64,000 bases of DNA from an uncultured Syntrophomonadaceae bacterium (GCA_964492615.1 CAZBKZ010000007.1:1883-65882), one strand, 5' to 3'. Positions 18,365 to 38,825 are shown, counted from the first letter of the stretch. Program-made: numbers and translations. Notes: a model not told the origin generated them from the sequence alone.

Positions 18365-19699
18365 TTAACGGGGAGAGGCTTCCTCCCCGTCAGCAGCCTG
18401 AAAATAATTTCTGAAGAAGAAATGACCGATCAACGCACCGATAACTGCTGCAAAAACCCAGCCAAAGCCGGCCGCGCCACCCGGAAAAAAGTTTCGCAGG
18501 GCAAGCATAGTATCTCCCCCACCCAGCAGAACAGCATATCCGCCGAATCCCTCAAGAAGCCCCCATAAAAAAGCGGCCATGGCAGATCCTGCCCGCGCCC
18601 CTTTCAAAGAGGGAGCAATAACAATAAAAAGGACTATAACTATAGCCGGGGGGTAAACCATATCGAGGATCGGTGCGGTTAACCTGATGATCTCCTCCAG
18701 GCCGACCATGCTGACCAGACCGCTTAAAAACAGGGTTACTGCGGTGCAGGCCACGTATGGAAGTTTACCTCCCGAAGCTTCTTCAAAATATGCAGCAGTT
18801 CCCCCGCCAAGCCCTACTGCCGAGGTAAGGGCGGCAAAAAGCAGGGCAACATTAAAGACAACTCCACCGATTGGGCCCCAGAGCTCTAGAATAATCGTAG
18901 CATAGAGCCTGGCATAAGTAATATCAAGAAAAAGTTCTCCCGTAGAGGCGCCGACCAGCATCTGGGTGAAATGGCTTGTGCCGAGCAGCAGAAAACCTAT
19001 GCCAGCCGTAATAACCAGGTAGCGGTTGAGGCTCTTTTCTTTCAAGCCGTGACTGCCGCTCAAACCGGCGATGACCAGGGTGGCAAACATCAGGGCCGCC
19101 GGCAGGTCCATTGTCTGGTAGCCATTCAGGAAACCATAGGTAAAGGGGTGTTCTGAATATAAAGGTGGTATCCATTCGGCCAGTGGTGAAACCAGGCTTC
19201 TAATTACCACGGCTGCAATGGTGACAAGCAGTACCGGCAGCAGGTAACGGGCAATTTTATCGATAACCTGGCTTCTGCGGTAAAGAAACCAGAATGCAGC
19301 AACATAGTAAAGGATCGTGAAAAGCAGCATACCCCAAAAAGGTGAACTTTCGAACCCCAGAATCTGGCAGATAGCATCCCAGGCTGCCGCGCTCATGCGC
19401 GGTATGGCAAAGAGCGGGCCCAAAACCAGAACTGTTAAGCCGCCAAAAACCTGGGCAAATGTGCGGTTAACTGAAAGATTTGCGATATTGAACAGGGTTC
19501 CTTCTTTCGAAACAGCAAGGTAGGCCAGCCAGGGAAAGATTACTGCTGAAATAAAAATACCCAGGTAAGCCAGTATAACTGCACTGCCGCTCTGCTGCCC
19601 CCAGGTAACAGGCCAGAGCATGCACGAACCTCCAAAATGCATGGCAAATACAGAACCGCCGATCGCTGCTGCAGTAAGTGGTTTCAACTGGTTTGACAT
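18365..19699 (-). CDS. Branched-chain amino acid:cation symporter (BrnQ family)
   Basis: FAMHFGG, GPLFAIPR, GYQTMD, ~12 TM segments. Confidence 0.82.
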   Translation of the reverse strand: MSNQLKPLTAAAIGGSVFAMHFGGSCMLWPVTWGQQSGSAVILAYLGIFISAVIFPWLAYLAVSKEGTLFNIANLSVNRTFAQVFGGLTVLVLGPLFAIPRMSAAAWDAICQILGFESSPFWGMLLFTILYYVAAFWFLYRRSQVIDKIARYLLPVLLVTIAAVVIRSLVSPLAEWIPPLYSEHPFTYGFLNGYQTMDLPAALMFATLVIAGLSGSHGLKEKSLNRYLVITAGIGFLLLGTSHFTQMLVGASTGELFLDITYARLYATIILELWGPIGGVVFNVALLFAALTSAVGLGGGTAAYFEEASGGKLPYVACTAVTLFLSGLVSMVGLEEIIRLTAPILDMVYPPAIVIVLFIVIAPSLKGARAGSAMAAFLWGLLEGFGGYAVLLGGGDTMLALRNFFPGGAAGFGWVFAAVIGALIGHFFFRNYFQAADGEEASPR

Positions 19700-19814
19700 C
19701 TGGTTCTTCGAACCTTTCATATTGTAAATATATTTGAGCAACGTGTTGCAATGCCATTAACTTAACATATTGGCTATTGAATCGCAAGATAGAAACCATG
19801 CTGTTCCATTAAGG

Positions 19815-20663
19815 CTATTCAATTCCGATCCTGAAAATATCTTGCAAAAATGTATCAGGTTGTTTCCCCGAAGCGCTGTACTCAAAAATACCCAGGCCAA
19901 CCAGGTTAAATTTCTCATTTAATCTTTTAATTAAGCTTAGCAGGGTTTGCGGCTTTAAACCGCCCGTTACCGGAACAGGAACATGGGGAAATTCTTCCGG
20001 GTCCAGCACGTCAAGGTCTAAATGAATATAAATATTTCCATCCATTCCGGAACCAGGATTGCTGAGCATGGAGTTTTCAACTGCCGTTATTAAACTTTCA
20101 CATCCTGCTTCAAGTTCTTTAACCTTCAGCACTTTTAAATCTGTTTTTTCAATATATGCGGTTTCGGCTGGATCAAGATCACGCAGCCCGGCCATAATCA
20201 CTTGAACAGGCTTCAGAACCGAGGGAAGCAAGCTTATGATAGTTGGGTCACCTTCTCCAAGTAATGTTCTGGCCGGCATGCCGTAGAAATAGCCGCTGGG
20301 CGAACTCCGGGGGGTATTCAAATCCCCGTGTGCATCAAACCAGATAACGGTCAGCCCTTCGTTATAAACTGCATTTAAATATGCTATGGGCAGCAGCCCT
20401 GCATCACATCCGCCACCGAGAGTAAAAATCTTTTGCGGCCGCTGAAAATCAATCAGCCTGGCGACATCTCTCATCTGCAGTAATATATCATCATAGCCGA
20501 AAATATCATTCTTTTTATCTGTGACAGGGCTGGTGCTTACGCTTACTTCTTCTAAGCCCACCTGCCCGGCGAGGTATTTCTTAAGCTCTACTGCCCCGTA
20601 ATATGGAGACAGGTCCGGACCACTACCCTGCCACTGAGGATAAAACAGATTTAGTTTTTCCAT
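19815..20663 (-). CDS. Arginase/ureohydrolase family protein
   Basis: LGGGC, WFDAHGD, HLDLDVLDP motifs. Confidence 0.82.
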   Translation of the reverse strand: MEKLNLFYPQWQGSGPDLSPYYGAVELKKYLAGQVGLEEVSVSTSPVTDKKNDIFGYDDILLQMRDVARLIDFQRPQKIFTLGGGCDAGLLPIAYLNAVYNEGLTVIWFDAHGDLNTPRSSPSGYFYGMPARTLLGEGDPTIISLLPSVLKPVQVIMAGLRDLDPAETAYIEKTDLKVLKVKELEAGCESLITAVENSMLSNPGSGMDGNIYIHLDLDVLDPEEFPHVPVPVTGGLKPQTLLSLIKRLNEKFNLVGLGIFEYSASGKQPDTFLQDIFRIGIE

Positions 20664-20900
20664 GCTGCTGCTTCCTTTCGCAACCTTAAAAGATTTATAT
20701 GCCTATATATAGCATAGCAACAATTCTACCTAACAGCACAGTAGCCTAATATCATAAAACATTATGATCCTCTTTATTCATCCTTCAGTTTTTACATGCA
20801 ACCGGTAAATCCAATTTCCCTAAATAAATTCATATCCAAATAATGAAAAGGCTGAAGACAAAAACAACAATTTGCTCAGACAGCAGCAAACCAGAGCACT

Positions 20901-22652
20901 TCAATCATCATAGCTGTTAAATTTATCTGGCAACCCACATAAACCTTCTATACAATCCGTTTCATTTTGAGTCGGCAACCATTTATCAATTGAAGCAGTT
21001 CCCAGGTGGCGATAGTCTGTAGCTATAAATAACGGACTTGTCTCTCCTCCTACCACAATTATCCTGATCTGTTTCGGGTCATGATACTGATTGATTAGCT
21101 CCTCATTATTAAGCCTGCTCCAAGTGCTATATGGCTCCACCCCTCTTTCAGCTTCTGATCCTAACAACATCTGTACCGTATCGGCAGCCCAAAATTTACC
21201 TGCTTCTATTTTTATACTGTTTGACAAATGAATGCTGAATTCTTCTTTTGTTTTGAACCCTTGTTTGTCCTTCAATTCCTTTGCTACTAGCGGATCCATA
21301 ATAATAGTCGCATTTGAGTATACAGATGGTATCGCTTCATACAAAATATTCATTTCTTCGGTTACTGAACGGTTGGAGGGTGCTCCAGAACTATTTATAA
21401 GCGTCCAACCACGGAATAGGCTAACAGCGTTATCTTCCTTTTTATAACCATTCTGAACATGAAAAGGCTGCCAACAACTCCTTTTTTCATTTTCCGCAAC
21501 ACACATATTGTTGTATGTAAAATTATTACCCAACGAACTCCATAATGTTTTCTTGTATTGTGAAAAACCCCAGCAGTGACTAATCAATGTCCAAGCTCTA
21601 CCAATTACTGCATTTGCTTTATTTACAGCGCTGAAAGCAGCTAAACCTGAATTGATTCCAATCTTTTCTGCAATTGGTCCATTAACCAGGACCATGGATC
21701 CAAAGGGAGTAGTAGAGGGCCGCAATGACGGTTCAGCCATAGAAGCTATAGCAAGAATAACTGGCAAATATTCTGTTTCAGCTCCAGCCATTACTGCTAT
21801 GGTTGCAATATTTGCTACTGTCGATTTTACTACTTCGTTTGTATCTTCAAGAAAAACTTCGGCAACTAATTCGTCAGGATTAACATTTGTGCCTTCTAAC
21901 ATCTTTCTCACTCTTTCTTCAGTAGGCACTATTATAGGTAACCCTTCAGTCCATCCTTTTTTATAAAAAAGAGCTTGTAGGTTTTCTTCAGTATCCGGGC
22001 CAATCAAGTTATTACAATCTTCTTGCCTTGCCGATGAATTGGGTTTAGCTCCAGCTTTTATTGGATTTACCATTTTCGTCAGCAAATCCATAATTCCTAT
22101 GTTTACTGGTTTTCCACTATGGGGATCATCGCCAGAAATATAATCGTATAATGTGTCCTGGGCCACTCCAACTACTGGATGAGGAGTGTAAACAAATTGT
22201 AAAACTTTCCCTATCGGATTCATATCAACAACTTTTTTATATTCAATAGTTGAAATTGGGGCTACGGGAACTCCATATTTACCTTCCAATTTGATCGTAG
22301 ATGCAGCGACCGCTGCAGCACAACCCGGTCACCCTGCTACCCCTAAAATGGCAGCATCGCCCTTTTCACTAATTTCCTTCCAAAGTTTTTCACAGTTCTC
22401 ATCTTCCATAAATACATTTCCCGGTTTCCTTTTCCTGACAGTTCTTACAGTTGGGTAGTAGTCGCTAAACCATTTTTGAAGGGCAAGCATAAAATAAGCA
22501 CTGCCTCCGAACCCGGTATCCACAAGGTAAACAGTTTTTCCCTCCAGTGTTGATAATCTGTTCGCCGGCGAAAAATCAACTTCTTCGGACTTACTTAAGA
22601 CTTTATCACCTGATACAGGACTTATAGCATAAATCTTTTTAGTTGATTTCAT
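20901..22652 (-). CDS. Selenoprotein, UGSC-like family, 583 aa; Sec at codon 108 (UGA 22329-22331) in a U-P-G-C motif
   Basis: The 107-aa and 462-aa ORFs are in the same frame, separated by one TGA; readthrough gives ...AILGVAG-U-PGCAAAVAASTIKLEGKYGVP; AAGGAG RBS only at the upstream ATG; SECIS-like hairpin follows. Confidence 0.85.
22302..22317 (-). promoter_or_regulatory. Bacterial SECIS element
   Basis: UGCAGC-GGUC-GCUGCA hairpin starting 12 nt after the UGA, with a G-first loop as in the E. coli fdhF SECIS. Confidence 0.8.
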
Positions 22653-23051
22653 AATGTCACTCCTTTTTCGGTTTCGGAATGGTACGCAGAATTTTTTTCG
22701 ATTATCGTGGAAATCAAATATTGTCTAATAGTATAACATAATCCTATATCTATAATAGGCTTCTATTTATTCTGTAAAAAACGCCTAAAAATAGTTATTC
22801 TAACCACCCGAGCCAATAGAAAAATAAATTGTAATTGATTCATCCAGCCTCGAGGAAGTGTGCTTTTATATAATGATTACTTGTCCCTACCCTCTCCTGT
22901 AAAGTATCAATTCCTGCTAGGAATTAGCTCAGTAGCTTTAACCTGCCTTTTGACAATGATCAACCTGAGAGCTTATAATACTAATTAATAATATTTATTA
23001 TTCGGGTACCTGCATTGCATCCATATCATATTTGAATATCACCAAGGCGGG

Positions 23052-25715
23052 ATGAACTTGGATATTGTGAAGACAAAGATTTCCCCCCCTGTCAAGGATG
23101 CAACATTCCTGGAAAGACATAACCTTATTTCCAGGTTAAACCAATGGCCGGACAAGAAGCTTACTCTGATTTCGGCTTCCGCTGGCAGTGGTAAAACCAG
23201 CCTGGTTAGTATGTGGATCCACAAGCTGATAAGCAATAAAGCTGACTGTAACGTTGCCTGGTATACCATTGATAAACACGACAACGATCCAGTTCGTTTT
23301 ATCCGTTATTTACTTTTTTCGCTACAGGAAGCTGGATACTGCGGTTTTAGTGACAGACTTAACAGTTTCTCGGAATTGCACAACATGCACCTTACCGAAA
23401 CCATGGCTTATATTGTCAGTTTACTCATAGACAACGATGACAATACTCCCCTTATTATTGTTCTTGATGATTACCAGACTATATACTCCCAGATAATACA
23501 TGAAGGAATAAATTTTTTATTGCGCTACCTTCCTTCTCACATCCATATAGTCATTTTAACTCGTAATGACCCTCCCTTGAACCTATCTTCACTGAGAGTA
23601 AAAGATCAGTTAATAGAGATCCGAACAGAAGATTTAAACTTTGATTATACTGAAAGCGAAGTATTTCTCAATAAACATCTACAGAATGACCTTGACCAGG
23701 AAACTATTGCCATGTTGCATAGGAAAACTGAAGGTTGGATAACAGGTCTTCAACTAACAGCATTATCTTTACGCAATAATAAAAAATCAAATAACCTTCA
23801 GTTGAATGAAGGAAACCATTTGATTGTCGATTACTTAATGGAAGAGGTTTATTCACAGCTTTCTGAAAAAATGCAGTCATTCCTTCTTCAAACTTCCATT
23901 TTAAGTCGATTTACTGTTTCTTTATGTGAATATGTTACCGGAATAGAAGAGAGCTACGAATTAATTGAGGCGCTCAGACGAGACAATCTTTTCATAGTAC
24001 CACTTGATCACGATGGGGAATGGTTCAGGTACCAAAATCAATTTTCTTATTTTTTACAGAGAAGGCTTCCTATAAATAACCAGGATAAAATGTGTGAGTT
24101 GCATACCAGAGCAGCCAACTGGCACTATAAAAAAAGACTTCGTCATGAGGCTTTTGATCATGCTGTTTCATCTCAAAATCCTGAATTAATTAATAAACTT
24201 GCGGAGGGTTATGTTGAAGAGCTATGGATAGCCGGTGAACATGCCCTCTTAATGGAACGCATGTCGCAAATCCCGGAGCCGGTAATGGAGAAAAATGCTC
24301 ATTTACGATTATTTTGGGCTTTGTTACGAATGGATTATGGGAAAATAGATACAAAACTACTAAAAACAGTTTTTTCCGAAAGCGCGAATAGCTTTTCAAG
24401 CAAAGAACTGGGTATGCTTGAAACAATCAGGGCTTCTTACGGCAACATTATTCAGAAATCAGAGATCATCAAAAGACATGCATCTTCGGCTATTGAACAT
24501 TTCAGTCGTTCTAATCCTGTATGGCAGAACAACGCCATATGTGTTCTTGCCCGGAATTATTATCTTTCAGGTGACCTGCAAGAAGCAGAAAAATACTTCC
24601 GTTTCGCATATCGTGAATCAATCTTAAATAGAAGTAGAAATATTGACTATCAGGCAGCATTTCATCTTGCCGATACCCTTCGGTCACAAGGCAGGTTCAA
24701 GGAAGCAAAAACACTCTGTCTTGAAAAATTGAAAGAAATAGAAAGCTGTGGCCTCTACCAGTTATTATACTCTGGTAGTTTTTACGTTGTCATGGGTGAA
24801 ATTTCCTGTGAAGAAAACGATATTAAATCGGCGCTTACCTATGGAGTGAAAAGTATAAAATTAGCAGAACAAAGAAACAACAGTCTCTCTCTGTGCATAA
24901 GCTACAAAAAACTGCTTAACACTTATATATCTATTAGAGATTACGATAAGATCAAAACCATATTAAATAAACTTCTTTCTTTAAAGAATAACACCTTTCT
25001 TCCTTCATGGATTGAAACAACTTTTCGCCTTGCTCAATCTGTTTTATATATACTGGATGAGAAAAACGATGAAGCGATCCAGGTTCTTCAACCGCCAAGT
25101 ATAAACAATAATTCAACCACAAAATTAACTAACGAAGACATAAGGGAATTACTATTCCTCTCTCGCCTGTATCTTCAAACCGGCAACCCCGGCAAGGCCG
25201 AACCTATCATTAAGAAGCTTAAGTTCAGACTGGCGAAAAATAACCGCTGGACATCATATCTAAATTGCCTTATTAATGAAGCTGCATACTGGGAACAGAT
25301 GGGAAATGAACAAAAAGCAGAAGAATGCGTTTGTGAAGCTCTGGAACTTGGTTTCCAAAAAGAATACTTGCGGACTTTTATCAATGCAGGCCCATTGCTG
25401 CAGTACAGGATGAGCAAGTTGAACCGAATGAATAAGCTTAGCAATTATGGTAAGAACATCTTAAATTATATTGAAACAGATCTATCTTCCAGAGCTGATT
25501 GCATTAACACCAACACTCAACTGGATCCACTCAGCCCAAGAGAATACGAGATCCTTAAGCTTTTACCCACCCAGTTATCCTACCCTGAAATTGCGGACCA
25601 CCTTTACATTTCCTATAGCACTGTTCGTTCACATGTAAAAAATATATACATGAAGCTAAATGCACACAGCCGCCTTGAAGCAGTAAATATTGGTCGCGCG
25701 CGCGGTTTAATCTAA
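23052..25715 (+). CDS. MalT-like (STAND ATPase-TPR-LuxR) transcriptional regulator
   Basis: TKISPP, SAGSGKTS, LDDY, TEGW, C-terminal 'LSPREYEIL...TVRSHVKNIYMKL' LuxR HTH. Confidence 0.9.
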   Translation: MNLDIVKTKISPPVKDATFLERHNLISRLNQWPDKKLTLISASAGSGKTSLVSMWIHKLISNKADCNVAWYTIDKHDNDPVRFIRYLLFSLQEAGYCGFSDRLNSFSELHNMHLTETMAYIVSLLIDNDDNTPLIIVLDDYQTIYSQIIHEGINFLLRYLPSHIHIVILTRNDPPLNLSSLRVKDQLIEIRTEDLNFDYTESEVFLNKHLQNDLDQETIAMLHRKTEGWITGLQLTALSLRNNKKSNNLQLNEGNHLIVDYLMEEVYSQLSEKMQSFLLQTSILSRFTVSLCEYVTGIEESYELIEALRRDNLFIVPLDHDGEWFRYQNQFSYFLQRRLPINNQDKMCELHTRAANWHYKKRLRHEAFDHAVSSQNPELINKLAEGYVEELWIAGEHALLMERMSQIPEPVMEKNAHLRLFWALLRMDYGKIDTKLLKTVFSESANSFSSKELGMLETIRASYGNIIQKSEIIKRHASSAIEHFSRSNPVWQNNAICVLARNYYLSGDLQEAEKYFRFAYRESILNRSRNIDYQAAFHLADTLRSQGRFKEAKTLCLEKLKEIESCGLYQLLYSGSFYVVMGEISCEENDIKSALTYGVKSIKLAEQRNNSLSLCISYKKLLNTYISIRDYDKIKTILNKLLSLKNNTFLPSWIETTFRLAQSVLYILDEKNDEAIQVLQPPSINNNSTTKLTNEDIRELLFLSRLYLQTGNPGKAEPIIKKLKFRLAKNNRWTSYLNCLINEAAYWEQMGNEQKAEECVCEALELGFQKEYLRTFINAGPLLQYRMSKLNRMNKLSNYGKNILNYIETDLSSRADCINTNTQLDPLSPREYEILKLLPTQLSYPEIADHLYISYSTVRSHVKNIYMKLNAHSRLEAVNIGRARGLI

Positions 25716-25735
25716 ATATACCCAAACCTCCTAAC

Positions 25736-25764
25736 AATCTGAAAATACCTCAATTGAGGGATGT
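25736..25764 (+). promoter_or_regulatory. 29-bp operator copy 1 (AATCTGAAAATACCTCAATTGAGGGATGT)
   Basis: Identical to 27394-27422; contains palindrome CCTCAATTGAGG; CATAAT lies 17 nt downstream. Confidence 0.75.
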
Positions 25765-25824
25765 ATCAGATAAGTATCAGGCATAATCTGTTAACAAATG
25801 ATACCACTAGGAGGCGTAATAAAA

Positions 25825-26742
25825 ATGCAAGATAAATACTCTCACCTGGTTAAGCCACTTTTAGTTCAACCCCCCCCGGAAAACCTCTACACGGAAACCC
25901 GAGTTTGGATGGAAGGAAAAGATCTTGAAGGTTTTAATGCCCACTTTTCATATGGATTTATTAAAAATCCATCTACTTTTCACCCTGTAGAAGGCTCTAT
26001 TGTTCATCCGTTTGATGAATGCCTTGTTTTTGTAGGCACTAAAAATGACGATTTACTTTACCTGGGCGCAGAAATATCAATCACGCTCGGAGATGAACAA
26101 GAGGAATATACTTTTTGTAAACCGTCCGTTGTTGTAATACCTAAAGGAATGCCTCATGGCCCTGTTACAGTTAAAAGTATAGATCGACCAATCGTACATT
26201 ACAGCATTGGCCTCGCCCCCGAATATAAAGCAGAAATAATTAACAATAAAACTATTGCTGCCAAGACTAACAGCAATAAATACAGCCATCTGATCAAAAC
26301 AATCAAACCTTTAGAAACATTGGATCCTGAAGGAAACCCAAGGAATCCTCAAGTAGGTCAATTGGGACCAGGAAACGCTGATCAGATAATGTGGGTTTAC
26401 GGAGAAGACCTTGAAGGGCTCGAAGTTAATTTCACATGGGGTTTTTATTCTCAGTGCGGTATCTGGCATCGAGGTGGTACAGCACATACACATCCTGAAG
26501 AAGAAATTTTAGTTTTTCCCGGTTTGAACCCTGATGATCTTAATGATTTCGGGGCAGAATTGGAAATTGCCCTGGGATACGAATTTGAGAGGCACATCAT
26601 CAATAGCCCTACCGTCGTTATCTGCCCTCAGGGCTTTCCTCACAACCCAGTCGTAGCAAGATGGGTAGATAATCCTTATGGATTTATAGTCTGCTGCCTG
26701 AGTGGCGAACATGATTCGCCTTGGGTAGATATCAAGGAATAA
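25825..26742 (+). CDS. Uncharacterised bicupin-like protein (two internal repeats)
   Basis: Repeats begin 'KYSHL'; motifs HPFDE...PKGMPHGP and HTHPEEE...PQGFPHNP; AGGAGG RBS. Confidence 0.7.
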   Translation: MQDKYSHLVKPLLVQPPPENLYTETRVWMEGKDLEGFNAHFSYGFIKNPSTFHPVEGSIVHPFDECLVFVGTKNDDLLYLGAEISITLGDEQEEYTFCKPSVVVIPKGMPHGPVTVKSIDRPIVHYSIGLAPEYKAEIINNKTIAAKTNSNKYSHLIKTIKPLETLDPEGNPRNPQVGQLGPGNADQIMWVYGEDLEGLEVNFTWGFYSQCGIWHRGGTAHTHPEEEILVFPGLNPDDLNDFGAELEIALGYEFERHIINSPTVVICPQGFPHNPVVARWVDNPYGFIVCCLSGEHDSPWVDIKE

Positions 26743-26773
26743 ACAGCTTTTATTATGATTGGAGGGTTACTAT

Positions 26774-27223
26774 ATGAGTAAATCACTTTATGAGGACTAT
26801 ATCCTCAGAGATATTCAGCTTCACGGACATCCACATGAAGACGATGTAGAATACCCGGTAATGGCTATGAAAACACTTACAGACTACGGAAATCACGGGT
26901 GCGCCTTAAGCTGGTGGCCAATTAGTAAACCTATGGCTATGGTAAAAGATACTCACTCTCATGACTTTGATCAGTATTTAATGTTTATTGGTGGTGACCT
27001 TACAAACATGAATGAGCTGGGTGGTGAAGTAGAACTGACTATTGGGCTTCCAGGGAAAGCACTTGAAACCATTACATTTACAAAAGCCACCACTTTTTTT
27101 GTGCCAGCCGGCATGTTACATGGACCACTTTACTTTAAAGAAATAAAGAATCCCCTGAAGCCAATATTGTTCCATGATTTCTTCTTTGCCGGAGAATATA
27201 GTAGAAAAGTTGAATCTGTTTAA
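26774..27223 (+). CDS. Uncharacterised monocupin-like protein of the same family
   Basis: HSHDFDQYL..IGG, LGGEVELTIG, PAGMLHGP; GGAGG RBS. Confidence 0.7.
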   Translation: MSKSLYEDYILRDIQLHGHPHEDDVEYPVMAMKTLTDYGNHGCALSWWPISKPMAMVKDTHSHDFDQYLMFIGGDLTNMNELGGEVELTIGLPGKALETITFTKATTFFVPAGMLHGPLYFKEIKNPLKPILFHDFFFAGEYSRKVESV

Positions 27224-27393
27224 GCAATCCCGGTTTATTCCTGATTACTGAATAAAGTAGTATATTTTTCAACATAACCCTAAGAACGTGCAATCCGGCC
27301 TTACATTGAAGTCATAGTATAAGCGGAAGTGTAAATTAAGCATAAGGTTATTTGTTGTTTAAGATATTTAAAAATGATTACTGTTCTTTCAAT

Positions 27394-27422
27394 AATCTGA
27401 AAATACCTCAATTGAGGGATGT
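27394..27422 (+). promoter_or_regulatory. 29-bp operator copy 2
   Basis: Exact copy of 25736-25764; AATAGT (-10-like) at the same 17-nt distance. Confidence 0.75.
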
Positions 27423-27482
27423 GCTGAATCAAAATTAACAATAGTTTTATAGTAAGTCATGATACAAGGAGGATCTAAAAGC

Positions 27483-28418
27483 ATGGATAAAGAGTATTCC
27501 CATTTGATTAAACCCTTGGTTGTTAAAAGCCCTCCTGAAGGATTATACCCAACGGAGCCCCGCTTTTGGATGGAAGGAAAAGATCTAGAAGGTTTTCAAG
27601 GCCATTTTTCATACGGTTTTTATAAAAAACCGACCACATTACACCCTACAGAGGGATCAGTTGTTCACCCCCATGACGAATGTCTGGTATTTGTAGGAAC
27701 AGATCACACTAATATACTGTATTTAGGTGCTGAGGTATCGATAGAACTCGGAGAAGAACGGGAAGAACACATTTTTAACGAGCCTACAGTGATAGTCATC
27801 CCAAAAGGTCTTCCTCACGGACCAGTAAAAATCAACAAAGTTGAAAAACCAATAATACATTATAGTATAGGTTTAGGACCCGAATATAAAGCAGAAATAC
27901 TTTATGAAAACGCCACTAAACCTAAAACAAATAGTAATAAATATAGCCATTTGGTCAAAAAATTCATTTCGCATCCTGAACCAGGATCTTCAATGGCTGA
28001 TATTGCAGACGAGAAAGGAGTAATGCATGCTTCTACAGGCGGAGTAGGCCCTGGTAATGGCGATGAAGTAGTCTGGGTCTTTGGTAAGGATCTTGAAGGC
28101 CTTGAAATCAACTTCAGCTGGGGTTTTTATACCCAGTGCGGTAAATGGCATAGAGGAGGTGAAGCTCACACCCACCCCGAAGAGGAGATCCTGGTCTATG
28201 TTGGACTTGATCCCGAAAACATCGATTACCTTGGAGCAGAGCTGGAACTTGGCATGGGGAAAGATTATGAACGTCATATCTTTAACACTCCCACTGTGGC
28301 GATTTGCCCACAAGGATTCCCACACCTTCCGCTTATAACAAGATGGGTTGACAAGCCATATGGTTTCTTCGTTTGCTGCCTGAGCGGAGACCATGACTCG
28401 CCCTGGGTGGAGGCTTAA
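27483..28418 (+). CDS. Uncharacterised bicupin-like protein, paralogue of 25825-26742
   Basis: Shared blocks WMEGKDLEGF, DECLVFVG, QCGxWHRGG.AHTHPEEEIL, CCLSG.HDSPWV. Confidence 0.72.
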   Translation: MDKEYSHLIKPLVVKSPPEGLYPTEPRFWMEGKDLEGFQGHFSYGFYKKPTTLHPTEGSVVHPHDECLVFVGTDHTNILYLGAEVSIELGEEREEHIFNEPTVIVIPKGLPHGPVKINKVEKPIIHYSIGLGPEYKAEILYENATKPKTNSNKYSHLVKKFISHPEPGSSMADIADEKGVMHASTGGVGPGNGDEVVWVFGKDLEGLEINFSWGFYTQCGKWHRGGEAHTHPEEEILVYVGLDPENIDYLGAELELGMGKDYERHIFNTPTVAICPQGFPHLPLITRWVDKPYGFFVCCLSGDHDSPWVEA

Positions 28419-28481
28419 TATCGTGAGATTGCTTATTATGGTTTTTCACGTTTACAAATTCATACCATCGGAGGTAAAGTT

Positions 28482-29576
28482 ATGAAAAAAAGCACTTTAA
28501 TGTATATTGCTTTAATCTTAATTATGGGCTTGTTATTTATCAGCGGTTGTTCAGGAGACACTTCAACACCTTCCGAATCAGAAGCTGAAAGTGAAGGCCC
28601 TGAGGAGATTGCTGAAGGACCAACAGCAGATGAACCCATTAATCTTGTTTTTGCAACATGGGAGCAGCCTACTACCGCGCTGGGTGTAATCTATCAAGAA
28701 GCAGCTGATCGCATTGAAGAAGAAACAGGTGGCAGAGTAGTAATGGAATGTTATTTCTCCGGTTCGTTACTGGAATACGCAGATGTGTTCCCCGGCGTTG
28801 CCTCTGGAAGGGCAGACATTGCCACAGCAATTTCATCTATGGCAACGGGAAAACTTAACCAGATATTTGATCAACCATACATAGGTATTCCTGATCAGGT
28901 AGAAGCAACAAAGGCATTTAAGGAGCTTTTAGTAACACGTCCGGAATTTCAGGAGGAAATGGAGCAGAACAACACACGGTGGATCAGCTTGCGAGCTATG
29001 CCCCCATACTGGTTACATACTGTTACTAAGCCAGTCAGAGTTCCTGATGATCTGAGGGGAACTAAGATAATGGCCAGTGGAGACACAATTGTTGATGTTT
29101 CTGGCGGTGCCTCCATTAATGCAGCTCCACCAGATATGTACATGAACCTTGAAAGAGGTCTCGCTGACGGACAAATTACCCACTGGAATGCAATAGTAAC
29201 CTTTGGCTTAAAAGAGCTATTTAATTACCATACCAGTTTCGGAGGTCCTCAAACCGGCCTGAAAGCCAGTGCAATCGGCTGGGTTATCAACCTTGACACC
29301 TGGAACAGCCTGCCCTCTGATATACAGGATATAATTGTTGAAGTATATGAATGGGCTGATATTGAACTAGGCAAACATGCTGAAGGCCAGGATGCTATGG
29401 CATGGTCCCGTGAGCAAGGTCATGAATTCATCGAGGTTACCGGTGAAGATCTCATACCCTGGGAAGAAGTTGCACAGCCAACAGTAGATAAATGGATCGA
29501 GGACGCAACAGCTGCAGGTTGGCCCGCCGCTGAAATCTGGGATTATTTTGGCGAATTAATTGAAAAACACAGGTAA
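28482..29576 (+). CDS. dctP: TRAP transporter substrate-binding lipoprotein DctP
   Basis: Lipobox 'FISGC', acidic linker, 'GRADIA', 'PDDLRG', 'YMNLERG..DG', 'WNSLP.D.Q'. Confidence 0.85.
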   Translation: MKKSTLMYIALILIMGLLFISGCSGDTSTPSESEAESEGPEEIAEGPTADEPINLVFATWEQPTTALGVIYQEAADRIEEETGGRVVMECYFSGSLLEYADVFPGVASGRADIATAISSMATGKLNQIFDQPYIGIPDQVEATKAFKELLVTRPEFQEEMEQNNTRWISLRAMPPYWLHTVTKPVRVPDDLRGTKIMASGDTIVDVSGGASINAAPPDMYMNLERGLADGQITHWNAIVTFGLKELFNYHTSFGGPQTGLKASAIGWVINLDTWNSLPSDIQDIIVEVYEWADIELGKHAEGQDAMAWSREQGHEFIEVTGEDLIPWEEVAQPTVDKWIEDATAAGWPAAEIWDYFGELIEKHR

Positions 29577-29652
29577 AATGAATATTTTATTATACAAAAT
29601 AATATGATTTATTTAATAAATAACAGTTAAAAATCATTTATTAAAGGCTTGG

Positions 29653-29691
29653 GACTGCAAGCGCAGCAATGATACATCTGCGCTTGCAGTC
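29653..29691. repeat. 14-bp perfect inverted repeat between dctP and dctQ
   Basis: GACTGCAAGCGCAG-N11-CTGCGCTTGCAGTC; no T tract. Confidence 0.8.
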
Positions 29692-29747
29692 TATAGAAAT
29701 AGCACATACCCATATTACATCTCTCTCCAATCATTCAGGATTAAGGG

Positions 29748-30242
29748 GTGATAAATTTGAGAAAAGCTGAAAAACTTATCTACTGGATAAGTGAAACATC
29801 AGCGATTATAGCAACAGTAGTGTTAATCCTCCTGATGCTCATTACCGTCAGCGATGTATTAATCCGCACTTTTTTTAACGAAACTATTCTTGGAATTGTT
29901 GAACTTACCGAAATGATGATGCCTGTTATAGGCTTTCTCGGTATAGCTTGGTGCGCTTTGCAGGGTGGTCATGTTGCAGTAGATATCCTGATTAGTTCGC
30001 TGTCTGAAGGAAAACAAAAAGTTTTTGATATTTTAAATTACCTGTTAGCAATTGTGATTACTTTTTTAATTGGTTGGCATACTCTGCAGCAGAGTTTCTT
30101 TATTAAACAGATTAATGTTGTAACTGATAGCCTGGACCTTCCAAAATACCCATTCATGATCATCGCCGCAGTAGGTTTCTTCTTAATGACTCTTGCTGTA
30201 TTTATCCTATTATTAAAAACATTTGAGCGGAGGGAGCACTAA
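29748..30242 (+). CDS. dctQ: TRAP transporter small permease DctQ
   Basis: 4 TM segments, 'DVLIR', 'GGHVAVD'. Confidence 0.85.
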   Translation: MINLRKAEKLIYWISETSAIIATVVLILLMLITVSDVLIRTFFNETILGIVELTEMMMPVIGFLGIAWCALQGGHVAVDILISSLSEGKQKVFDILNYLLAIVITFLIGWHTLQQSFFIKQINVVTDSLDLPKYPFMIIAAVGFFLMTLAVFILLLKTFERREH

Positions 30243-31537
30243 TGTCACCTGAAATGATCGGCGTTATTGGAATAATAATTCTTGTAATAATGTTATTCAT
30301 GCGATTATGGATTGGCATTATACTTGCTGTAATTGGTATGGTTGGCTATGCCCTCCTAACTAATTGGGATAGATCTCTTTTAATGATCGGCACTGAACCA
30401 TTTAGTCATGCCGCTACATATGCGATATCAGCAATGCCGCTTTTTATATTAATGGGCATGGTCGTATCTGTTACCGGGATTGCCGGCGATATGTATCAGG
30501 CTGCCCGTAACTGGATTGGTCATGTACGTGGCGGGTTAGCCATGGCCACTGTAATAGCCTGTGGTGGTTTTGCTGCAGTAACCGGTTCAAGCATGGCCAG
30601 CACTGCTACAATGGGAAAAGTTGCTTATCCTGAAATGATAAAATATAAATACAATGAGCGTCTGGCTGCAGGCTGTATTTCGGCTGGAGGCACCGTTGGT
30701 ATACTTATTCCTCCTAGTATAGGTTTTATTATATACGGACTCTTCACTGAAAATTCTATTGGCAAACTATTCATGGCGGGTATACTGCCTGGCTTAAGTG
30801 AAATACTTTTTTATATAATAACTATCTTTATTGTGTGCCGCTTTAAACCACATTATGGACCACCGGGACCAAAAGTAGTTTTAAAAGAAAAAATAGTTTC
30901 ACTCAGGGGCGTCTGGTCAATAGCAGTCCTTTTTATATTGGTTATTGGTGGCATATATGGAGGATTTTTCACTCCAACTGAAGCAGGTGCTATAGGCGCT
31001 TTTGGAGCTATTGTCATTGCCCTAGCCACTCGCAGAATAACGATCAAAGGTTTAATGAGAACTTTTCGCGAAACCGCACAAACAACTGCTATGATCATGA
31101 TTATGATTGCCGGCTCGATGATCTTTAACCGCTTTATCACTGTAAGCAAGTTACCGGTCGCTATGGGTGATTTCGTAGCCGGCCTTGATGTCTCTCCTAT
31201 TATGATCATGGCCGGTATTGTTCTACTTTACCTTGTAATAGGATGTTTTGTAGATATTATTGCAGCGATCGTCTTAACTTTACCTGTGATATACCCAATT
31301 GTGATGATTTTAGGTTTTGATCCATTTTGGTTTGGTGTTATTATGGTGAGATTAATGGAAGTAGGCGCCATTACTCCCCCCATGGGCCTTAATATTTTTA
31401 TTCTTGCCAAGACTATTAACATACCTGTTGGAACTATATACCGAAGTGTTTTTCCTTTTGTTGTAGCAGATTTTGTGAATCTGGCATTTTTAATTGCCTT
31501 TCCTCAAATCTCTCTCTTCCTGGTTAACCTTATGTAG
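30242..31537 (+). CDS. dctM: TRAP transporter large permease DctM
   Basis: PLFILMG, GILIPPS, FTPTEAG, ITPPMGLN. Confidence 0.92.
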   Translation: MSPEMIGVIGIIILVIMLFMRLWIGIILAVIGMVGYALLTNWDRSLLMIGTEPFSHAATYAISAMPLFILMGMVVSVTGIAGDMYQAARNWIGHVRGGLAMATVIACGGFAAVTGSSMASTATMGKVAYPEMIKYKYNERLAAGCISAGGTVGILIPPSIGFIIYGLFTENSIGKLFMAGILPGLSEILFYIITIFIVCRFKPHYGPPGPKVVLKEKIVSLRGVWSIAVLFILVIGGIYGGFFTPTEAGAIGAFGAIVIALATRRITIKGLMRTFRETAQTTAMIMIMIAGSMIFNRFITVSKLPVAMGDFVAGLDVSPIMIMAGIVLLYLVIGCFVDIIAAIVLTLPVIYPIVMILGFDPFWFGVIMVRLMEVGAITPPMGLNIFILAKTINIPVGTIYRSVFPFVVADFVNLAFLIAFPQISLFLVNLM

Positions 31538-31592
31538 TTATTAAAATATATTTGAAGATAAGAACATTGGTAAAAGATGTAAAGGAGTAAAC

Positions 31593-32735
31593 ATGATGAA
31601 ATATAATAAATTCAACAATATGGAATGGGTGGCATCAGCTCTGGGTTTTAGCGCAGACTCCCTTCCTGTACCTAAGCAAAAACTAAAAACCACATCTCAT
31701 CAGGTAATCGAATTACTCCAGTATTGTCTTGATAAAGGGGTTAACTATCTTGATATCGGTTATCCCTACCATCTGGGAGAAAAAAAGTACATGTCCGGTA
31801 TCATCAGTCAAGTAATTAGTGACTTTCCGAGAGATTCAGTAAAAATTGCCTTAACCATTCCCTCTTACTCGATAAAAACAGCCAATGATTTTGAGCTATA
31901 TCTAAATATGCAGTTAGAATGGTTAAAAATTGAAAAAGCAGATTTTTGCCTGCTGGGCATGTTGAACCGCGATAATTGGCCTGTTTTAAATAAGCTTAAT
32001 GTTTTGGAGTGGGTTGAAAAAGCACGGTCAGATGGACGCATTGACAAAATAGGCTTTTCTTTTCATGATCACTTTCAAATTCTTAAAGAGATAATTGCTG
32101 CCTACGACCATTGGGCAATTAGTCAGTTTCAATATAGTTATGTGGACGAAAATCATGATCCTGGAAGTAGCGGAATTGCATATGCTAGCAGTAAAGATTT
32201 GGCTGTTGTTATCAGTGAACCGCTACACAAAAAAAGACTGAGTAATAGCTTACCTTCTGAAGTTTTAAAACTGATCAGTTCTTTTCCTGCATACCATTCG
32301 CCCACTACCTGGGCTCTGCAATGGGTTTGGAATCATCCAGAAGTTTCAGTTGTTCTAGGTGAAATGTCCAATATAACCGAGGCCGAAGAACATATTTCCG
32401 CAGCTAACACGTTTAATCCGAACAGTTTAACAATCAAAGAACTGATAGCATATGAGAAAATCAAAGATTATTTTAAATCTAAAATAATTGTTCCCTGCCC
32501 CTCATGCCGTCCTTGTATGCCTTGCCCTCAAGGCATCGACGTTCCACGAATATTCGAGATATACAATGATGCTGCCATATATAATGATTATAGGACAGCC
32601 CGAAAGATCTACGCTGATGAAAATCATAGAATTGAGCTGTGCAATGAGTGTGGGAGTTGTGAAAAATCCTGTGCAAAGAGGCTGACAATAATTCAATACC
32701 TGAAACAAGCACAAATTGCGCTTGAAAACGATTGA
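31593..32735 (+). CDS. Aldo/keto reductase-fold protein with C-terminal 4Fe-4S dicluster (degenerate active site)
   Basis: SALGF, D..YPYH, IGFSFHD, QYSY.D; CPSCRPCMPCP and CNECGSCEKSC. Confidence 0.8.
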   Translation: MMKYNKFNNMEWVASALGFSADSLPVPKQKLKTTSHQVIELLQYCLDKGVNYLDIGYPYHLGEKKYMSGIISQVISDFPRDSVKIALTIPSYSIKTANDFELYLNMQLEWLKIEKADFCLLGMLNRDNWPVLNKLNVLEWVEKARSDGRIDKIGFSFHDHFQILKEIIAAYDHWAISQFQYSYVDENHDPGSSGIAYASSKDLAVVISEPLHKKRLSNSLPSEVLKLISSFPAYHSPTTWALQWVWNHPEVSVVLGEMSNITEAEEHISAANTFNPNSLTIKELIAYEKIKDYFKSKIIVPCPSCRPCMPCPQGIDVPRIFEIYNDAAIYNDYRTARKIYADENHRIELCNECGSCEKSCAKRLTIIQYLKQAQIALEND

Positions 32736-33148
32736 AACATATTTTGAAATAACAGAGTTTATAAGCTGGCCTTTCACTGCCAAAGAATATTGCATTCAAG
32801 CGATAATCCCACTAAAGCTTTCTTATGTGCAGTTAGATCGCCCACCGTAATAGCGGAATAATGGCACCATCTTTTATCAATATTTTTTCTTTAGGCAATC
32901 TGGATTGTTTGTGAATTATATAAATGACGACAAGTAAGCAGCATGAAGTGTGGATGTTGAAATGCCAAACCAAAAGCCTGTTTTTCATCTCGTAACTGAA
33001 AAACAGGTACATCTTATCACAGTTCTAACATTCCATATGTAGATCTTTTGAGAATTAGTGATGTTTTAAAATATTTCTGTAACGGCCTCACCGCATCAAG
33101 TAATTTAACCGTTTCCGGATGTTATGAATATTAAGTAGCTGATCTCTT

Positions 33149-34123
33149 TTAGAGAACTTCTTCCAAAACCCTGACAAAATTACCGTGGCAAATCTTGATC
33201 ATCTCTTCCCTGCTGAAACCGCATTTCTCCAGCATTTCACGCAGGCAGCTAAACTTTTCCACATTCTCCAGCCCTTCCGGGGTGCTGGTTATGCCGTCAA
33301 AATCAGAACCAAAACCGACACTTTCAACACCGGATACCTCGGCAATATGGCAGATATGCCTTATAACATCATCTGTTGTTGTCTGCCCCGTTTGCCTGAG
33401 AAAATCAGGGCAAAAGTTTATGCCCACCATACCGCCTGCTTCAGCCAGGGCACGCAGCTGTATGTCGCTTAAATTGCGGGGATGATCGCACAGGGCACGG
33501 GCGCATGAATGTGAAGCAACCACCGGTCTTTCTGAAAACTGCAGAACATCCCAGAAACCGGCTTCGTTAAGGTGAGAAAGGTCAATCAGCATACCGAGAT
33601 TATTCATTCTATCAATAACCCTGCGGCCAAAAAGCGACAGGCCGTTTTTACTGTATTTTTCCCCCACTCCATCAGCGATAGCATTACGCTGGTTCCAGGT
33701 TAAGCCGAGAGCCCTTACCCCCAGCCGGTAAATCAGATCAAGCATAAAAAGGCTTTCTCCGAGAATTTCTCCTCCTTCTACACTGACTAGAACACCGGTT
33801 TTGCTGCCGCCGAGCCTGCGCAAATCGCCCTTTTTACTAATTAGAAAAAGCCTTCTCCTGTTGACCTCGATAAAGTTCAGGGCTGATTCAATCAGCTGCA
33901 GACCTCTCCATGTTGCCTGGGTGGGCTTATGCTCGCTCTCTATGTACATGGCCATTATCTGCAACCCCAGGCCGGCTTTTTCTGCCCCGGCTATACTCCA
34001 GTGACTGCAACCATCAGGCTTGCGCAGATCGCTTTTTCCTGCCTGGTAATTGATTATACTGTCGTTGTGCCCGTCGGCAATCCAATATTCATGCAATCCG
34101 ACCAATCCTCCACTCGCTTGCAT
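33149..34123 (-). CDS. Membrane dipeptidase (peptidase M19 family)
   Basis: DGHND, VEGG, LTWN, DLSH, ASHS, RNLSD, GSDFDG; exact start uncertain. Confidence 0.88.
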   Translation of the reverse strand: MQASGGLVGLHEYWIADGHNDSIINYQAGKSDLRKPDGCSHWSIAGAEKAGLGLQIMAMYIESEHKPTQATWRGLQLIESALNFIEVNRRRLFLISKKGDLRRLGGSKTGVLVSVEGGEILGESLFMLDLIYRLGVRALGLTWNQRNAIADGVGEKYSKNGLSLFGRRVIDRMNNLGMLIDLSHLNEAGFWDVLQFSERPVVASHSCARALCDHPRNLSDIQLRALAEAGGMVGINFCPDFLRQTGQTTTDDVIRHICHIAEVSGVESVGFGSDFDGITSTPEGLENVEKFSCLREMLEKCGFSREEMIKICHGNFVRVLEEVL

Positions 34124-34204
34124 TTTTCCTTTTGTAGTCTATCTTACCATATTTGTGATATTATAATGGAATTGCAGCAGAAATCGGCTTGAACCGGAGT
34201 TGTC

Positions 34205-38352: not shown

Positions 38353-38700
38353 TATAGCACAATTACTGTTGGCTTTATTAGTCATTTTTCACTTTTTGCA
38401 CATAAATTACACAATCCAATATTTTTTCCTAAACTCTATAGCTTGCTTAATACCTCTATATTTGTAAATAAAAAGTGCAACAAAAGCGGGATTTATTTAT
38501 AATTTATAGAAATGCTCCATAATCCTATGAACAACGAAGATATCAAGTAATATTTTTCCACTACCAATGATTTTTGTGCTGCATTTTTTTATATGAAAAG
38601 TATAAAGGCTAATAATTGCAACACTATTGAGATCATTACTTCTTTTTGTTAAAATCTATTTAGTATTTATTTACGGCTGGGAGGCAGTCTGCCCAGTTGA

Positions 38701-38773: not shown

Positions 38774-38825
38774 CGACTTAAGGTTTTATTTCTTATTCTG
38801 TCGCGAACGGAGGTGACAATAACAA

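Follow-up and report, generated by a model that had tools for sequence, protein, structure and literature searches.

A stretch of 64,000 nucleotides (nt) from an uncultured Syntrophomonadaceae bacterium (GCA_964492615.1 CAZBKZ010000007.1:1883-65882; here the window, whose numbering is used throughout) contains, at 20680-33081, an AT-rich block that encodes a selenoprotein, a MalT-type activator, three cupin-type proteins, a tripartite ATP-independent periplasmic (TRAP) transporter and a protein with an aldo-keto reductase (AKR) fold and cysteine motifs of the iron-sulfur type (here Fe-S AKR). The locus raises the question of whether these genes form one functional unit and, if so, of what kind. 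We found that the block is a genomic island that strains of a sludge anaerobe carry or lack as one piece, and that its core is a two-domain cupin (bicupin) gene followed by the Fe-S AKR gene. On balance, and with considerable doubt, we favour the view that the island is a horizontally mobile, inducible route for the uptake and conversion of a small molecule, probably an uncharged one in the sense that it lacks a carboxylate.

A low-GC island present in some strains and absent from others

20680..33081, no strand: genomic island (present/absent polymorphism), 39% GC, delimited by contig joints, tblastx limits and composition
19815-20663, minus strand: arginase-family gene, left flank, outside the island
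33149-34123, minus strand: M19 dipeptidase gene, right flank

In 1-kb windows the GC content falls at about 20.5 kb and recovers at about 33 kb, with values of 0.365-0.454 between 21 and 33 kb and of 0.468-0.522 in the flanks. Over 20700-33100 it is 39.2%, as against a mean of 45.2% (standard deviation 2.6; z -2.3) for 12.4-kb windows of the genome, and 17 of the 1859 such windows are as low as the block or lower. Gene by gene, the island lies at 37-45%, whereas the genes for a branched-chain amino-acid transporter and the M19 dipeptidase outside it lie at 49-51%; the arginase-family gene at the left edge lies at 45%. The AT-richer block noticed in a preliminary description of this DNA was thus borne out both locally and against the genome as a whole.

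Four metagenome runs that are not sources of the assembly were compared with positions 19500-34500 (joints with sides of 69 and 35 letters, likeness threshold 90). On a contig of one run (X7), position 20679 is joined straight to 33082, skipping 12402 nt, and on a contig of another (X6) it is joined straight to 33091, skipping 12411 nt. Both runs also have other contigs that cover the island, and in X5 and X6 the flank contigs have about twice the depth found within the island. That the form without the island comes from a somewhat diverged strain is shown by single-nucleotide polymorphisms near the joints and by a loose end at 20679. The block is therefore a discrete insertion or deletion, carried by some strains of a sludge anaerobe and not by others. 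Its DNA was present in 19 sludge-metagenome runs from 18 studies, four of the runs being possible sources.

The same block lies between other flanks elsewhere. When window positions 14-40 kb were compared by tblastx with another Bacillota metagenome-assembled genome (MAG; locus L018), similarity was found solely over 20892-32723, with unrelated flanks, and all ten island genes were present there in the same order at 62-86% protein identity. The flanking arginase and M19 genes were found by tblastn at none of the 79 bicupin loci described below. A close bicupin orthologue occurs in one of 40 relatives, G005, which belongs to the same family and another genus; its fragments carry bicupin A, the single cupin, bicupin B and the start of dctP in the order of the window. 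The selenoprotein was found in one of the five nearest relatives, again G005. In four genomes of the same genus the island bicupin was not found, apart from weak matches (E 2e-8) in one. Together, the composition, the empty site in related strains, the different flanks in L018 and the absence from the four same-genus genomes strongly support horizontal acquisition, as had been proposed in the preliminary description. In a tree of the bicupins (quick search, support by the Shimodaira-Hasegawa-like approximate likelihood ratio test), both window copies grouped with L018 and L019, and no donor lineage was supported; a tblastn search of PLSDB plasmids gave no bicupin match.

The bicupin and Fe-S AKR genes form a conserved pair

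25825..26742, plus strand: bicupin A, 305 residues from an internal ATG (the open reading frame, ORF, opens at 25798; 314 residues)
26759..27223, plus strand: single-domain cupin-like protein, 154 residues, HxH...Q and PxGxxH motifs
27483..28418, plus strand: bicupin B, 311 residues (ORF opens at 27459; 319 residues), C-domain with a full and N-domain with a partial metal motif
31593..32735, plus strand: AKR-fold barrel followed by a C-terminal part with two four-Cys motifs, catalytic Lys and His replaced

A scan with the bicupin alignment, over one genome per species of the GTDB set, gave 107 confirmed stretches, and the best 80 of these make up 79 loci, all in MAGs. By tblastn, the Fe-S AKR was found at 69 of the 79, DctP at six, the MalT-type regulator and DctQ/DctM at four each, and the selenoprotein at two. 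Two loci are too short downstream to be assessed. At 67 of the other 77, the last tandem bicupin gene is directly followed by a co-oriented AKR gene (median gap 60 nt). At two more the AKR gene is found 2-3 kb downstream, in the case of L018 because dctPQM is inserted as in the window, and at eight there is none. The genes around the pair otherwise vary greatly from locus to locus. A bicupin gene followed by an Fe-S AKR gene is thus a conserved core found in several phyla of uncultured anaerobes. The selenoprotein, the MalT-type regulator and the TRAP transporter are, judging from these counts, lineage-specific additions to it. Of the single module proposed earlier, co-occurrence across genomes upholds the bicupin and Fe-S AKR part and does not extend to the selenoprotein, the regulator or the TRAP permeases.

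No description of the pair was found in literature on the combination of cupin, AKR and 4Fe-4S domains or on COG1453, and in the literature searched no functional description was found for the bicupin, its Fe-S AKR partner or the fused domain of the selenoprotein. As far as sequence comparison goes, both the bicupin and the Fe-S AKR families are unnamed and without a relative of solved structure. In three Chloroflexota loci (L058, L064 and L093) a heliorhodopsin gene directly follows the Fe-S AKR gene.

Two paralogous bicupins and a single-domain relative

Translation of the bicupins probably begins at the internal ATGs at 25825 and 27483, because these sit behind GGAGG and public gene calls of 311 residues agree. 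Bicupins A and B are paralogues, 62-64% identical. The single cupin shares 32% identity with a bicupin domain (E 2e-9) and has orthologues at 17 of the 79 loci. The three cupins of the preliminary description thus stand as three cupin-type genes, two of them encoding two-domain paralogues and one a single-domain relative. None of the three matched a Pfam or NCBIfam model, even at E<=10, and no bicupin match was found in the PDB, even with the family profile at E<=10; Cupin_2 is carried by 12% of one cluster of the protein Atlas.

Of the 2764 candidates in a search with bicupin B, 1053 proteins reached E<=0.001. The top 120 matches are 63-100% identical to it and have no Pfam domain on record, and all of the names given to them are 'hypothetical protein'. 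Where a source is named, it is a MAG of Dehalococcoidales, Moorellales, Thermodesulfobacteriota, Acidobacteria or Firmicutes, and identity across phyla is 63-80%. Bicupin matches at E<=1e-40 occur in 15 of the 151 genomes sampled from the order to which L035 belongs. A bicupin gene is also carried by a MAG labelled Bathyarchaeia (L059 982-1938); its product is identical, over the columns of the tree, to that of a Dehalococcoidaceae locus (L061 2148-3104), and a binning error is more likely than an archaeal occurrence.

Cupins are defined by two motifs that supply His and Glu metal ligands. In an alignment of 29 bicupins (mean column identity 61%), the C-domain motif, H229-x-H231-x3-E235 and P-x-G-x2-H281 in bicupin B, is invariant (29/29). 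W222, H223, R224, C275, C299 and H304 are also invariant, and the N-domain has a partial metal motif formed by H62, E66 and H112. An AlphaFold2 model of bicupin B (predicted local distance difference test score, pLDDT, 89.3; predicted template-modelling score 0.89) consists of two double-stranded beta-helix domains. Its best Foldseek matches were oxalate decarboxylase, seed globulins and MncA (E about 1e-14, TM 0.5-0.6, probability 1.00, 8-14% identity). With VIA-align, the oxalate decarboxylase OxdC (5hi0) reached Z 17.5 (rmsd 3.7, 252 residues aligned), quercetinase (2h0v) 16.7, an IolB-like protein (2qjv) 16.6 and BacB (3h7j) 14.6; AerE equalled BacB at 14.6, and many bicupins lay above Z 12.

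On the predicted model, these fold matches are too distant to suggest a reaction. The bicupins share with OxdC, YxaG, the IolB-like protein and BacB the two-domain beta-helix fold and the HxH...E...H metal motif of the C-domain. They differ from all four in sequence (5-14% identity), in their extra invariant residues and in having an obligate Fe-S partner gene. Dioxygen-dependent chemistry of the OxdC or quercetinase type is unlikely for them, since the family occurs in lineages of strict anaerobes.

The Fe-S AKR has lost catalytic residues and is predicted to bind the bicupin

The Fe-S AKR scored 57.4 bits with Pfam Aldo_ket_red PF00248 (cut-off 24), and its 4Fe-4S domain scored 22.4 with Fer4_17 (cut-off 22.2) and below the cut-off with Fer4_9. 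The two Cys motifs (C302, C305, C308 and C311, the last followed by Pro; C350, C353, C356 and C360) are invariant in all 23 sequences of the family alignment, as are R126, W129 and P130 in an insertion. With the single sequence there were no matches in the PDB; the family profile matched the Thermotoga-type AKRs 5dan/6kik over profile positions 1-270 with E 7.7e-17. When aligned with 5dan, whose catalytic tetrad we presumed to lie in the DTAxxY, SK and IHW motifs, the Fe-S AKR keeps Asp and Tyr (D54 and Y59) and has T88, in a variable column, in place of Lys and Gly in place of His. It thus resembles the Thermotoga-type enzymes in its barrel and in the positions of the catalytic Asp and Tyr, but lacks their Lys and His and has, unlike them, the invariant insertion and an eight-Cys C-terminal domain. 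The barrel has probably lost hydride chemistry of the NAD(P)H type, because the catalytic Lys and His are replaced. A second paralogue (34% identity) is encoded at 49127-50254 of contig C11 of the host genome, about 8 kb from a dctPM set at 37831-40906; that contig has no bicupin match.

Because the adjacency of the two genes is so constant and both families are unnamed, the pair was chosen for complex prediction. Bicupin B and the Fe-S AKR gave a score of 0.78 (0.78, 0.79 and 0.77 in separate runs), and the best of three controls gave 0.00. In a benchmark, 58 of 80 solved complexes and two of 110 mismatched pairs scored up to this mark; the counts apply only roughly to the present pair, which was predicted from our own alignments. 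The runs shared at least 95% of contacts, and the pLDDT of the partners was at least 89. The predicted interface comprises residues 303-307 and 361-362, within the Cys motifs, and 280-289 of the Fe-S AKR, and residues 61-64, 108-109, 230-233 and 276-278 of the bicupin, which carry or flank H62, H112, H229/H231/E233 and C275/H281. PDB sequence searches for the pair showed ordinary AKRs only, and we know of no solved complex of a cupin with an Fe-S AKR that the prediction could have memorised. The prediction supports binding of bicupin B and the Fe-S AKR to each other, and the modelled heteromer would fit an arrangement in which the clusters and the cupin metal sites lie within electron-transfer range.

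Bicupins and reductases are also paired in KduI/KduD of pectin and uronate catabolism, in which a bicupin isomerase and a reductase act in sequence. There, as here, a bicupin and a protein of the carbonyl-reductase type are encoded together; KduI was among the fold matches (9kcz, Z 11.9), and a short-chain dehydrogenase/reductase (SDR) gene accompanies the pair of the island type at 23 of the 79 loci. The partner in the island differs from KduD, however, in being an AKR-fold, Fe-S protein that lacks the catalytic Lys and His and is predicted to bind the bicupin.

A TRAP transporter without the carboxylate-binding arginine

28482..29576, plus strand: DctP, TRAP binding protein with lipoprotein signal (…ISGC), Met at the carboxylate-binding Arg position
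29748..30242, plus strand: DctQ, TRAP small permease (Pfam)
30242..31537, plus strand: DctM, TRAP large permease (Pfam/NCBIfam)

Of the genes listed in the preliminary description, dctPQM (28482-31537) and the Fe-S AKR gene were confirmed by family scans, the latter with a 4Fe-4S dicluster domain. DctP scored 102.7 bits with PF03480 and 81.7 bits with NF037995 (cut-off 50), and all three subunits passed Pfam thresholds, in which they resemble DctPQM, SiaPQM and TarPQM. DctP begins with a lipoprotein signal (…LLFISGC), in line with what a monoderm would be expected to have; TRAP systems that use such a binding lipoprotein work as importers. Among solved proteins, DctP is closest to 4n6d and to the 7nr2/7nrr/7nsw group, and the latter we take to be binders of lignin-derived aromatic acids. 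We also take one aligned column, by way of R147 in the LKLR motif of SiaP, to be that of the carboxylate-binding arginine. There 4n6d (LKGLEVRASG) and 7nr2 (LEGMKIRGGS) have Arg, whereas the island DctP has Met (LRGTKIMASG). In the five DctPs that are linked to a bicupin, the column holds Met (window and L018) or Ile (L020, L022 and L027).

The conserved arginine of TRAP binding proteins is described, in a part of PMC11668362, as salt-bridged to the substrate's carboxylate or sulfonate. The substrate of DctP is likely to lack a carboxylate, because DctP lacks this arginine, and the proposal of a non-carboxylate ligand gains support from the Met or Ile found in all four other bicupin-linked DctPs. 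Uronates and other carboxylates were considered as substrates and set aside on the same, weak, grounds; for uronates, too, it is the missing arginine in the linked DctP that makes them unlikely.

A MalT-type regulator and a repeated box

23052..25715, plus strand: MalT-type activator, 887 residues (STAND ATPase, TPR, LuxR helix-turn-helix; NF003420, Pfam)
22950..22979, plus strand: consensus promoter of the sigma-70 type, TTGACA-18-TATAAT (12/12), before the regulator gene; a pattern match only
25736..25764, plus strand: regulatory box 1, 29 nt, AATCTGAAAATACCTCAATTGAGGGATGT, with the palindromic core CCTCAATTGAGG, starting 89 nt before the bicupin A start
27394..27422, plus strand: regulatory box 2, 29 nt, AATCTGAAAATACCTCAATTGAGGGATGT, identical to box 1, starting 89 nt before the bicupin B start

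The regulator matched NF003420 with 402.4 bits over residues 6-880 of the model's 903, below the equivalog cut-off of 537. It contains TPR_MalT (PF17874, 106.6 bits), GerE (PF00196, 55.6 bits) and, as a weak P-loop match near the N-terminus, NPHP3_N (27.5 bits, cut-off 24.8); a second such match, AAA_22, fell below its cut-off. By these scores it is a relative of MalT and not MalT itself.

The two boxes are identical at 29 of 29 bases, and the coding DNA of the paralogous bicupins is about 77% identical. The 12-nt core is not rare by chance (two occurrences with up to two mismatches, 3.3 expected), so that the weight of the boxes rests on the 29-nt identity and on conservation elsewhere. The box occurs twice in each of three genomes, with no mismatches in the window, one or two in L018 and four or five in L019, and each of the six copies starts at a distance of 89-91 nt from the bicupin start codon that follows it. 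The other 76 loci have no copy. The intergenic DNA around the box is much less conserved. The identical operator of the preliminary description therefore holds up as a 29-nt identity in two copies with a spacing that is fixed across three genomes. The MalT-type regulator is the obvious candidate for binding the box, because box and regulator gene co-occur in the window and, in synteny, in L018; the contig of L019 is not long enough to show whether the gene is there. The full-length MalT match and the repetition of a box in the promoter regions of target operons recall the E. coli MalT regulon and LAL activators, and the box contains GGGATG, which we take to resemble a MalT box. In contrast to that regulon, the candidate target genes here encode cupins, a TRAP transporter and an AKR instead of maltodextrin proteins, and the regulator stays below the equivalog cut-off.

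There is no overall enrichment of promoter-like sites (42, with 38 expected). A promoter formed by TTGAGG of the box and a downstream -10 element was rejected, as its spacing of about 22 nt does not fit. An Rfam scan of 20000-34000 at E<=1 gave a chance miRNA match and no riboswitch.

A selenoprotein of the UGSC family with an unnamed C-domain

20904..22652, minus strand: selenoprotein, 583 residues, UGSC domain (U108) fused to an unnamed C-domain of about 410 residues with a CxxGxCGLPD tail; stop codon TGA at 20901-20903
22302..22317, minus strand: hairpin resembling a selenocysteine insertion sequence (SECIS), 5-6 bp G+C stem, GGUC loop, starting 11-12 nt after the UGA

Two minus-strand ORFs, 22329-22652 and 20901-22289, form one frame broken by a single TGA at 22329-22331, which would encode U108 in the context ...LGVAGUPGCAAAV... 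(motif GUPGC). The read-through product passes Pfam UGSC PF24696 (48.5 bits, cut-off 25) over residues 25-168, with U108 inside, and the 107-residue piece ahead of the TGA fails it (19.1 bits). The NCBIfam equivalog NF041046 was not reached (41.5, cut-off 125). When ten homologous loci were read through, a TGA in UxxC context was found in eight (the contexts include GUPGC, GUDGC, HUSTC and DUGAC) and Cys in one; one was unclear. Folded as a single sequence, the hairpin is not significant (z -0.71; 43 of 200 shuffles fold equally well). Over the ten homologues its stem is the consensus structure, with compensatory changes in three of five pairs and the loop GGTC in eight of ten; the stem overlaps conserved Ala-Ala-Val-Ala-Ala codons, which confounds coding with RNA constraint. 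We take its spacing and loop to resemble those of the E. coli fdhF SECIS. The host genome encodes SelA (593 bits), SelB (381 bits) and SelD (369 bits), all above cut-offs, and a selenocysteine tRNA was not found in its 94 contigs. We take the gene to encode a true selenoprotein, in keeping with the earlier description of a selenoprotein transcribed divergently from the MalT-type gene. The genes selA, selB and selD are adjacent (contig C4, 71792-76165), and selD has one in-frame TGA; SelD itself is probably a selenoprotein.

Residues 170-583 matched no Pfam or NCBIfam model. Of the 8000 candidates scored in a search with this C-domain, 4463 proteins reached E<=0.001, with identities of 53-76%; each is either unnamed or labelled 'UGSC family (seleno)protein'. 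Most have 420-476 residues, and their aligned start falls directly after the UxxC motif; most entries are therefore gene calls truncated at the TGA, and fusion is the rule in the family. The invariant residues include C384 and H398, and most members end in a C-x-D-G-x-C-G-L-P-D tail. In the protein Atlas, where solely unnamed or UGSC-labelled clusters were found for the selenoprotein and bicupin families, the same C-domain is also fused to AhpC/Redoxin modules in place of UGSC. A PDB profile search with the selenoprotein family gave no matches at E<=10, and AlphaFold2 gave no usable fold for the whole protein (27-row alignment, mean pLDDT 40.6).

A passage of Zhang and Gladyshev (2008; PMC2398784) describes UGSC-containing proteins as a major aquatic selenoprotein family with UxxC, a likely thioredoxin-like fold and no known function, and mentions a 'UGSC/Unknown_1' fusion; a 2026 review (PMC13188914) still treats the family, in the part that concerns it, as uncharacterised. 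The island protein shares with these proteins the UxxC motif with selenocysteine first and the passing of the PF24696 threshold. It differs from them in being the fused form, with an unnamed C-domain of about 410 residues and a Cys-rich tail, and in lying below the NF041046 cut-off. Judged by its distribution, the UGSC-fusion selenoprotein is a member of a distinct family that is very large and occurs in other genomic contexts.

Three observations concern this family at large. One homologue (P0125) has the Cys tail (C-x-D-G-S-C-G-L-P-D...Y-D) in three copies, like a modular swinging arm. An Acidobacteriota MAG (G043) has 67 matches to the UGSC-fusion family, with tandem arrays (L115, C12:186000-205900; L119, C4:150000-169900) beside genes for TonB-dependent receptors made up of CarboxypepD_reg and an outer-membrane barrel. 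Its family members have N-termini like signal peptides and the motif HUSTC.

A possible uptake-and-conversion route and its alternatives

If the island is an inducible route for the uptake and conversion of a small molecule, its steps might be as follows. The MalT-type activator, once bound to an inducer, would act at the 29-nt box upstream of each bicupin gene and switch on two units, one of bicupin A and the single cupin and the other of bicupin B, dctPQM and the Fe-S AKR. The lipoprotein DctP would deliver the substrate. Bicupin and Fe-S AKR would form a heteromeric enzyme in which electrons move, in one direction or the other, between the iron-sulfur clusters and the cupin metal centre; the AKR-like barrel, with two of four catalytic residues lost, would be a part that binds the substrate or serves as a scaffold, and not a carbonyl reductase dependent on NAD(P)H. 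The UGSC-fusion selenoprotein could carry out a redox or bond-cleaving step with its selenol/thiol (UxxC) pair on the same compound or on its product. A role in import is supported by the position of dctPQM inside the operon and by other pairs that are flanked by Dpp-type or LIV-type ABC importers and GntR or MalT-type regulators, the latter near the pair at a few loci. The substrate may be a carbonyl compound that is neutral and either cyclic or aromatic, as suggested by the absence of the arginine, by the company of SDR, SnoaL-like and AKR genes and by the kinship of DctP with presumed aromatic-acid binders.

All of the folds are of known kinds (cupin, AKR, ferredoxin-type, TRAP, STAND regulator, UGSC). 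A stronger form of the proposal, in which the bicupin and the Fe-S AKR are two subunits of an undescribed class of oxygen-independent metalloenzyme, with clusters that feed a mononuclear cupin metal site and act on neutral, possibly aromatic or cyclic-carbonyl compounds, seems to us possible and rather doubtful. If true, the class would be widespread in those Dehalococcoidales, Thermodesulfobacteriota, Acidobacteriota and Bacillota that live in sediments, peat and sludge, and the Bacillota version would be a transferable package that also holds a selenocysteine-dependent UxxC enzyme, a TRAP importer lacking the arginine and a switch of the MalT type.

Several observations weigh against the uptake-and-conversion route. 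For none of the four enzyme families is a substrate, a product or an activity on record. None of the 19 runs that carry the island is an RNA run. The complex score is a model's confidence drawn from our own alignments and is no demonstration of binding. No copy of the box lies in the intergenic region between the selenoprotein and malT genes, that is, before the selenoprotein gene. Outside the Bacillota the selenoprotein family is not linked to the bicupin and AKR pair: of the two loci out of 79 that have it, L018 and L049, the second carries a 32%-identical paralogue, and in G042 the selenoprotein gene lies 370 kb from the pair. A selenocysteine tRNA was not found in the MAG, which is 96% complete in 94 contigs (best Rfam match 42.9, threshold 47; 38 tRNAs by ARAGORN, none for selenocysteine). 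Pfam and NCBIfam scans revealed no integrase or transposase among the island ORFs, no flanking repeats or target duplication were reported in the repeat search or seen at the island ends, and the nearest tRNA gene is about 8.5 kb away. Many Dehalococcoidales pairs, moreover, lie beside genes for MarR, efflux pumps, FMN reductase, glutaredoxin and flavodiiron or rubredoxin proteins; such stress-type neighbours, and the housekeeping neighbours of about eight loci, fit stress defence better than catabolism.

These neighbourhoods are the basis of the main rival, which we regard as improbable: that the bicupin and the Fe-S AKR serve in defence against, or repair after, a reactive compound (quinones, phenolics, electrophilic carbonyls or oxygen-derived species), to which the island adds a transporter and a sensor. 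About 12 Dehalococcoidales loci have a Dpp-type ABC importer, an SDR, a single cupin, divergent MatE and MarR genes, two bicupins, the AKR and then a major facilitator superfamily (MFS) gene on the opposite strand, with flavodiiron (ODP and flavodoxin) and flavin-reductase/rubredoxin genes near. At about nine others MarR, two ABC exporter genes and an FMN reductase gene precede the pair, with a glutaredoxin gene upstream, and at about eight the pair follows CobS, CobU, GYD and SpoU genes, as would suit constitutive protection. Defence fits less well, however, with the TRAP importer in or beside the operon in the window, L018, L020, L022 and L027, or with the Dpp-type and LIV-type ABC importers with binding proteins that flank the pair at more than 15 further loci (at four, a LIV-type importer and a SnoaL-like gene precede the bicupin). 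The stress genes lie mostly on the opposite strand, and the two or three tandem bicupins with single cupins, SDR and SnoaL-like genes resemble a multi-step pathway.

The recurrence of cupin, SDR, SnoaL-like and AKR-fold genes at these loci (among the neighbour clusters, SDR at 23, single cupins at 17, MFS at 12, MatE at 11 and SnoaL-like genes at seven) could also be read as a set of tailoring enzymes for a natural product, with the transporter serving in export or precursor uptake, and such proteins are common in polyketide tailoring. We consider this very unlikely: no synthase, synthetase or scaffold-forming gene is found in the island or in the recurrent neighbour clusters, and TRAP systems with a binding lipoprotein belong to a family of importers. 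That the block is no unit at all, just unrelated genes in an AT-rich stretch with a pseudogene at the TGA, draws on the insignificant single-sequence hairpin, the selenocysteine tRNA not found and the lack of linkage of most island genes outside the Bacillota, yet it is the least probable reading of all, given the whole gene order kept between unrelated flanks in L018, the gain or loss of the island as one piece, the box at fixed spacing in three genomes, and the UxxC context of the TGA with its Cys-bearing homologue, covarying stem and accompanying selA, selB and selD.

Three of the island families are large, strongly conserved and unannotated, with no solved relative at the sequence level, namely the bicupin (more than 1000 clusters), the Fe-S AKR and the C-domain of the selenoprotein (more than 4400 hits, up to 67 per Acidobacteriota genome), and they sit in lineages, among them the Dehalococcoidales, that dominate anoxic sediments and are almost uncultured. 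The island with its uptake-and-conversion genes offers a tractable entry to them, as it combines a compact operon with its own sensor, a putative operator, a binding protein that can be screened, and strains with and without it in the same sludge reactors. Once identified, the ligand would put a name to a pathway in roughly one in ten of the genomes sampled from one order and would give the fused UGSC selenoprotein its first functional context.

Other features of the window and the host genome

Left of the arginase-family gene, outside the island and at normal GC, lie a HemN-like radical SAM gene (17044-18294, minus strand) and the branched-chain amino-acid transporter gene (18365-19741, minus strand). 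To the right, at 35104-36384 on the plus strand, a 426-residue protein combines a cyclic-nucleotide-binding domain, a Crp-type helix-turn-helix and two B12-binding domains, an unusual architecture for a regulator. Elsewhere in the genome, contig C64 carries at 98-169 a tRNA with a CTA anticodon (tRNA-Pyl by ARAGORN), just before a gene for the C-terminal domain of PylS (321-1046; 346 bits, cut-off 178). Because of these two genes, the host seems to decode pyrrolysine as well as selenocysteine.

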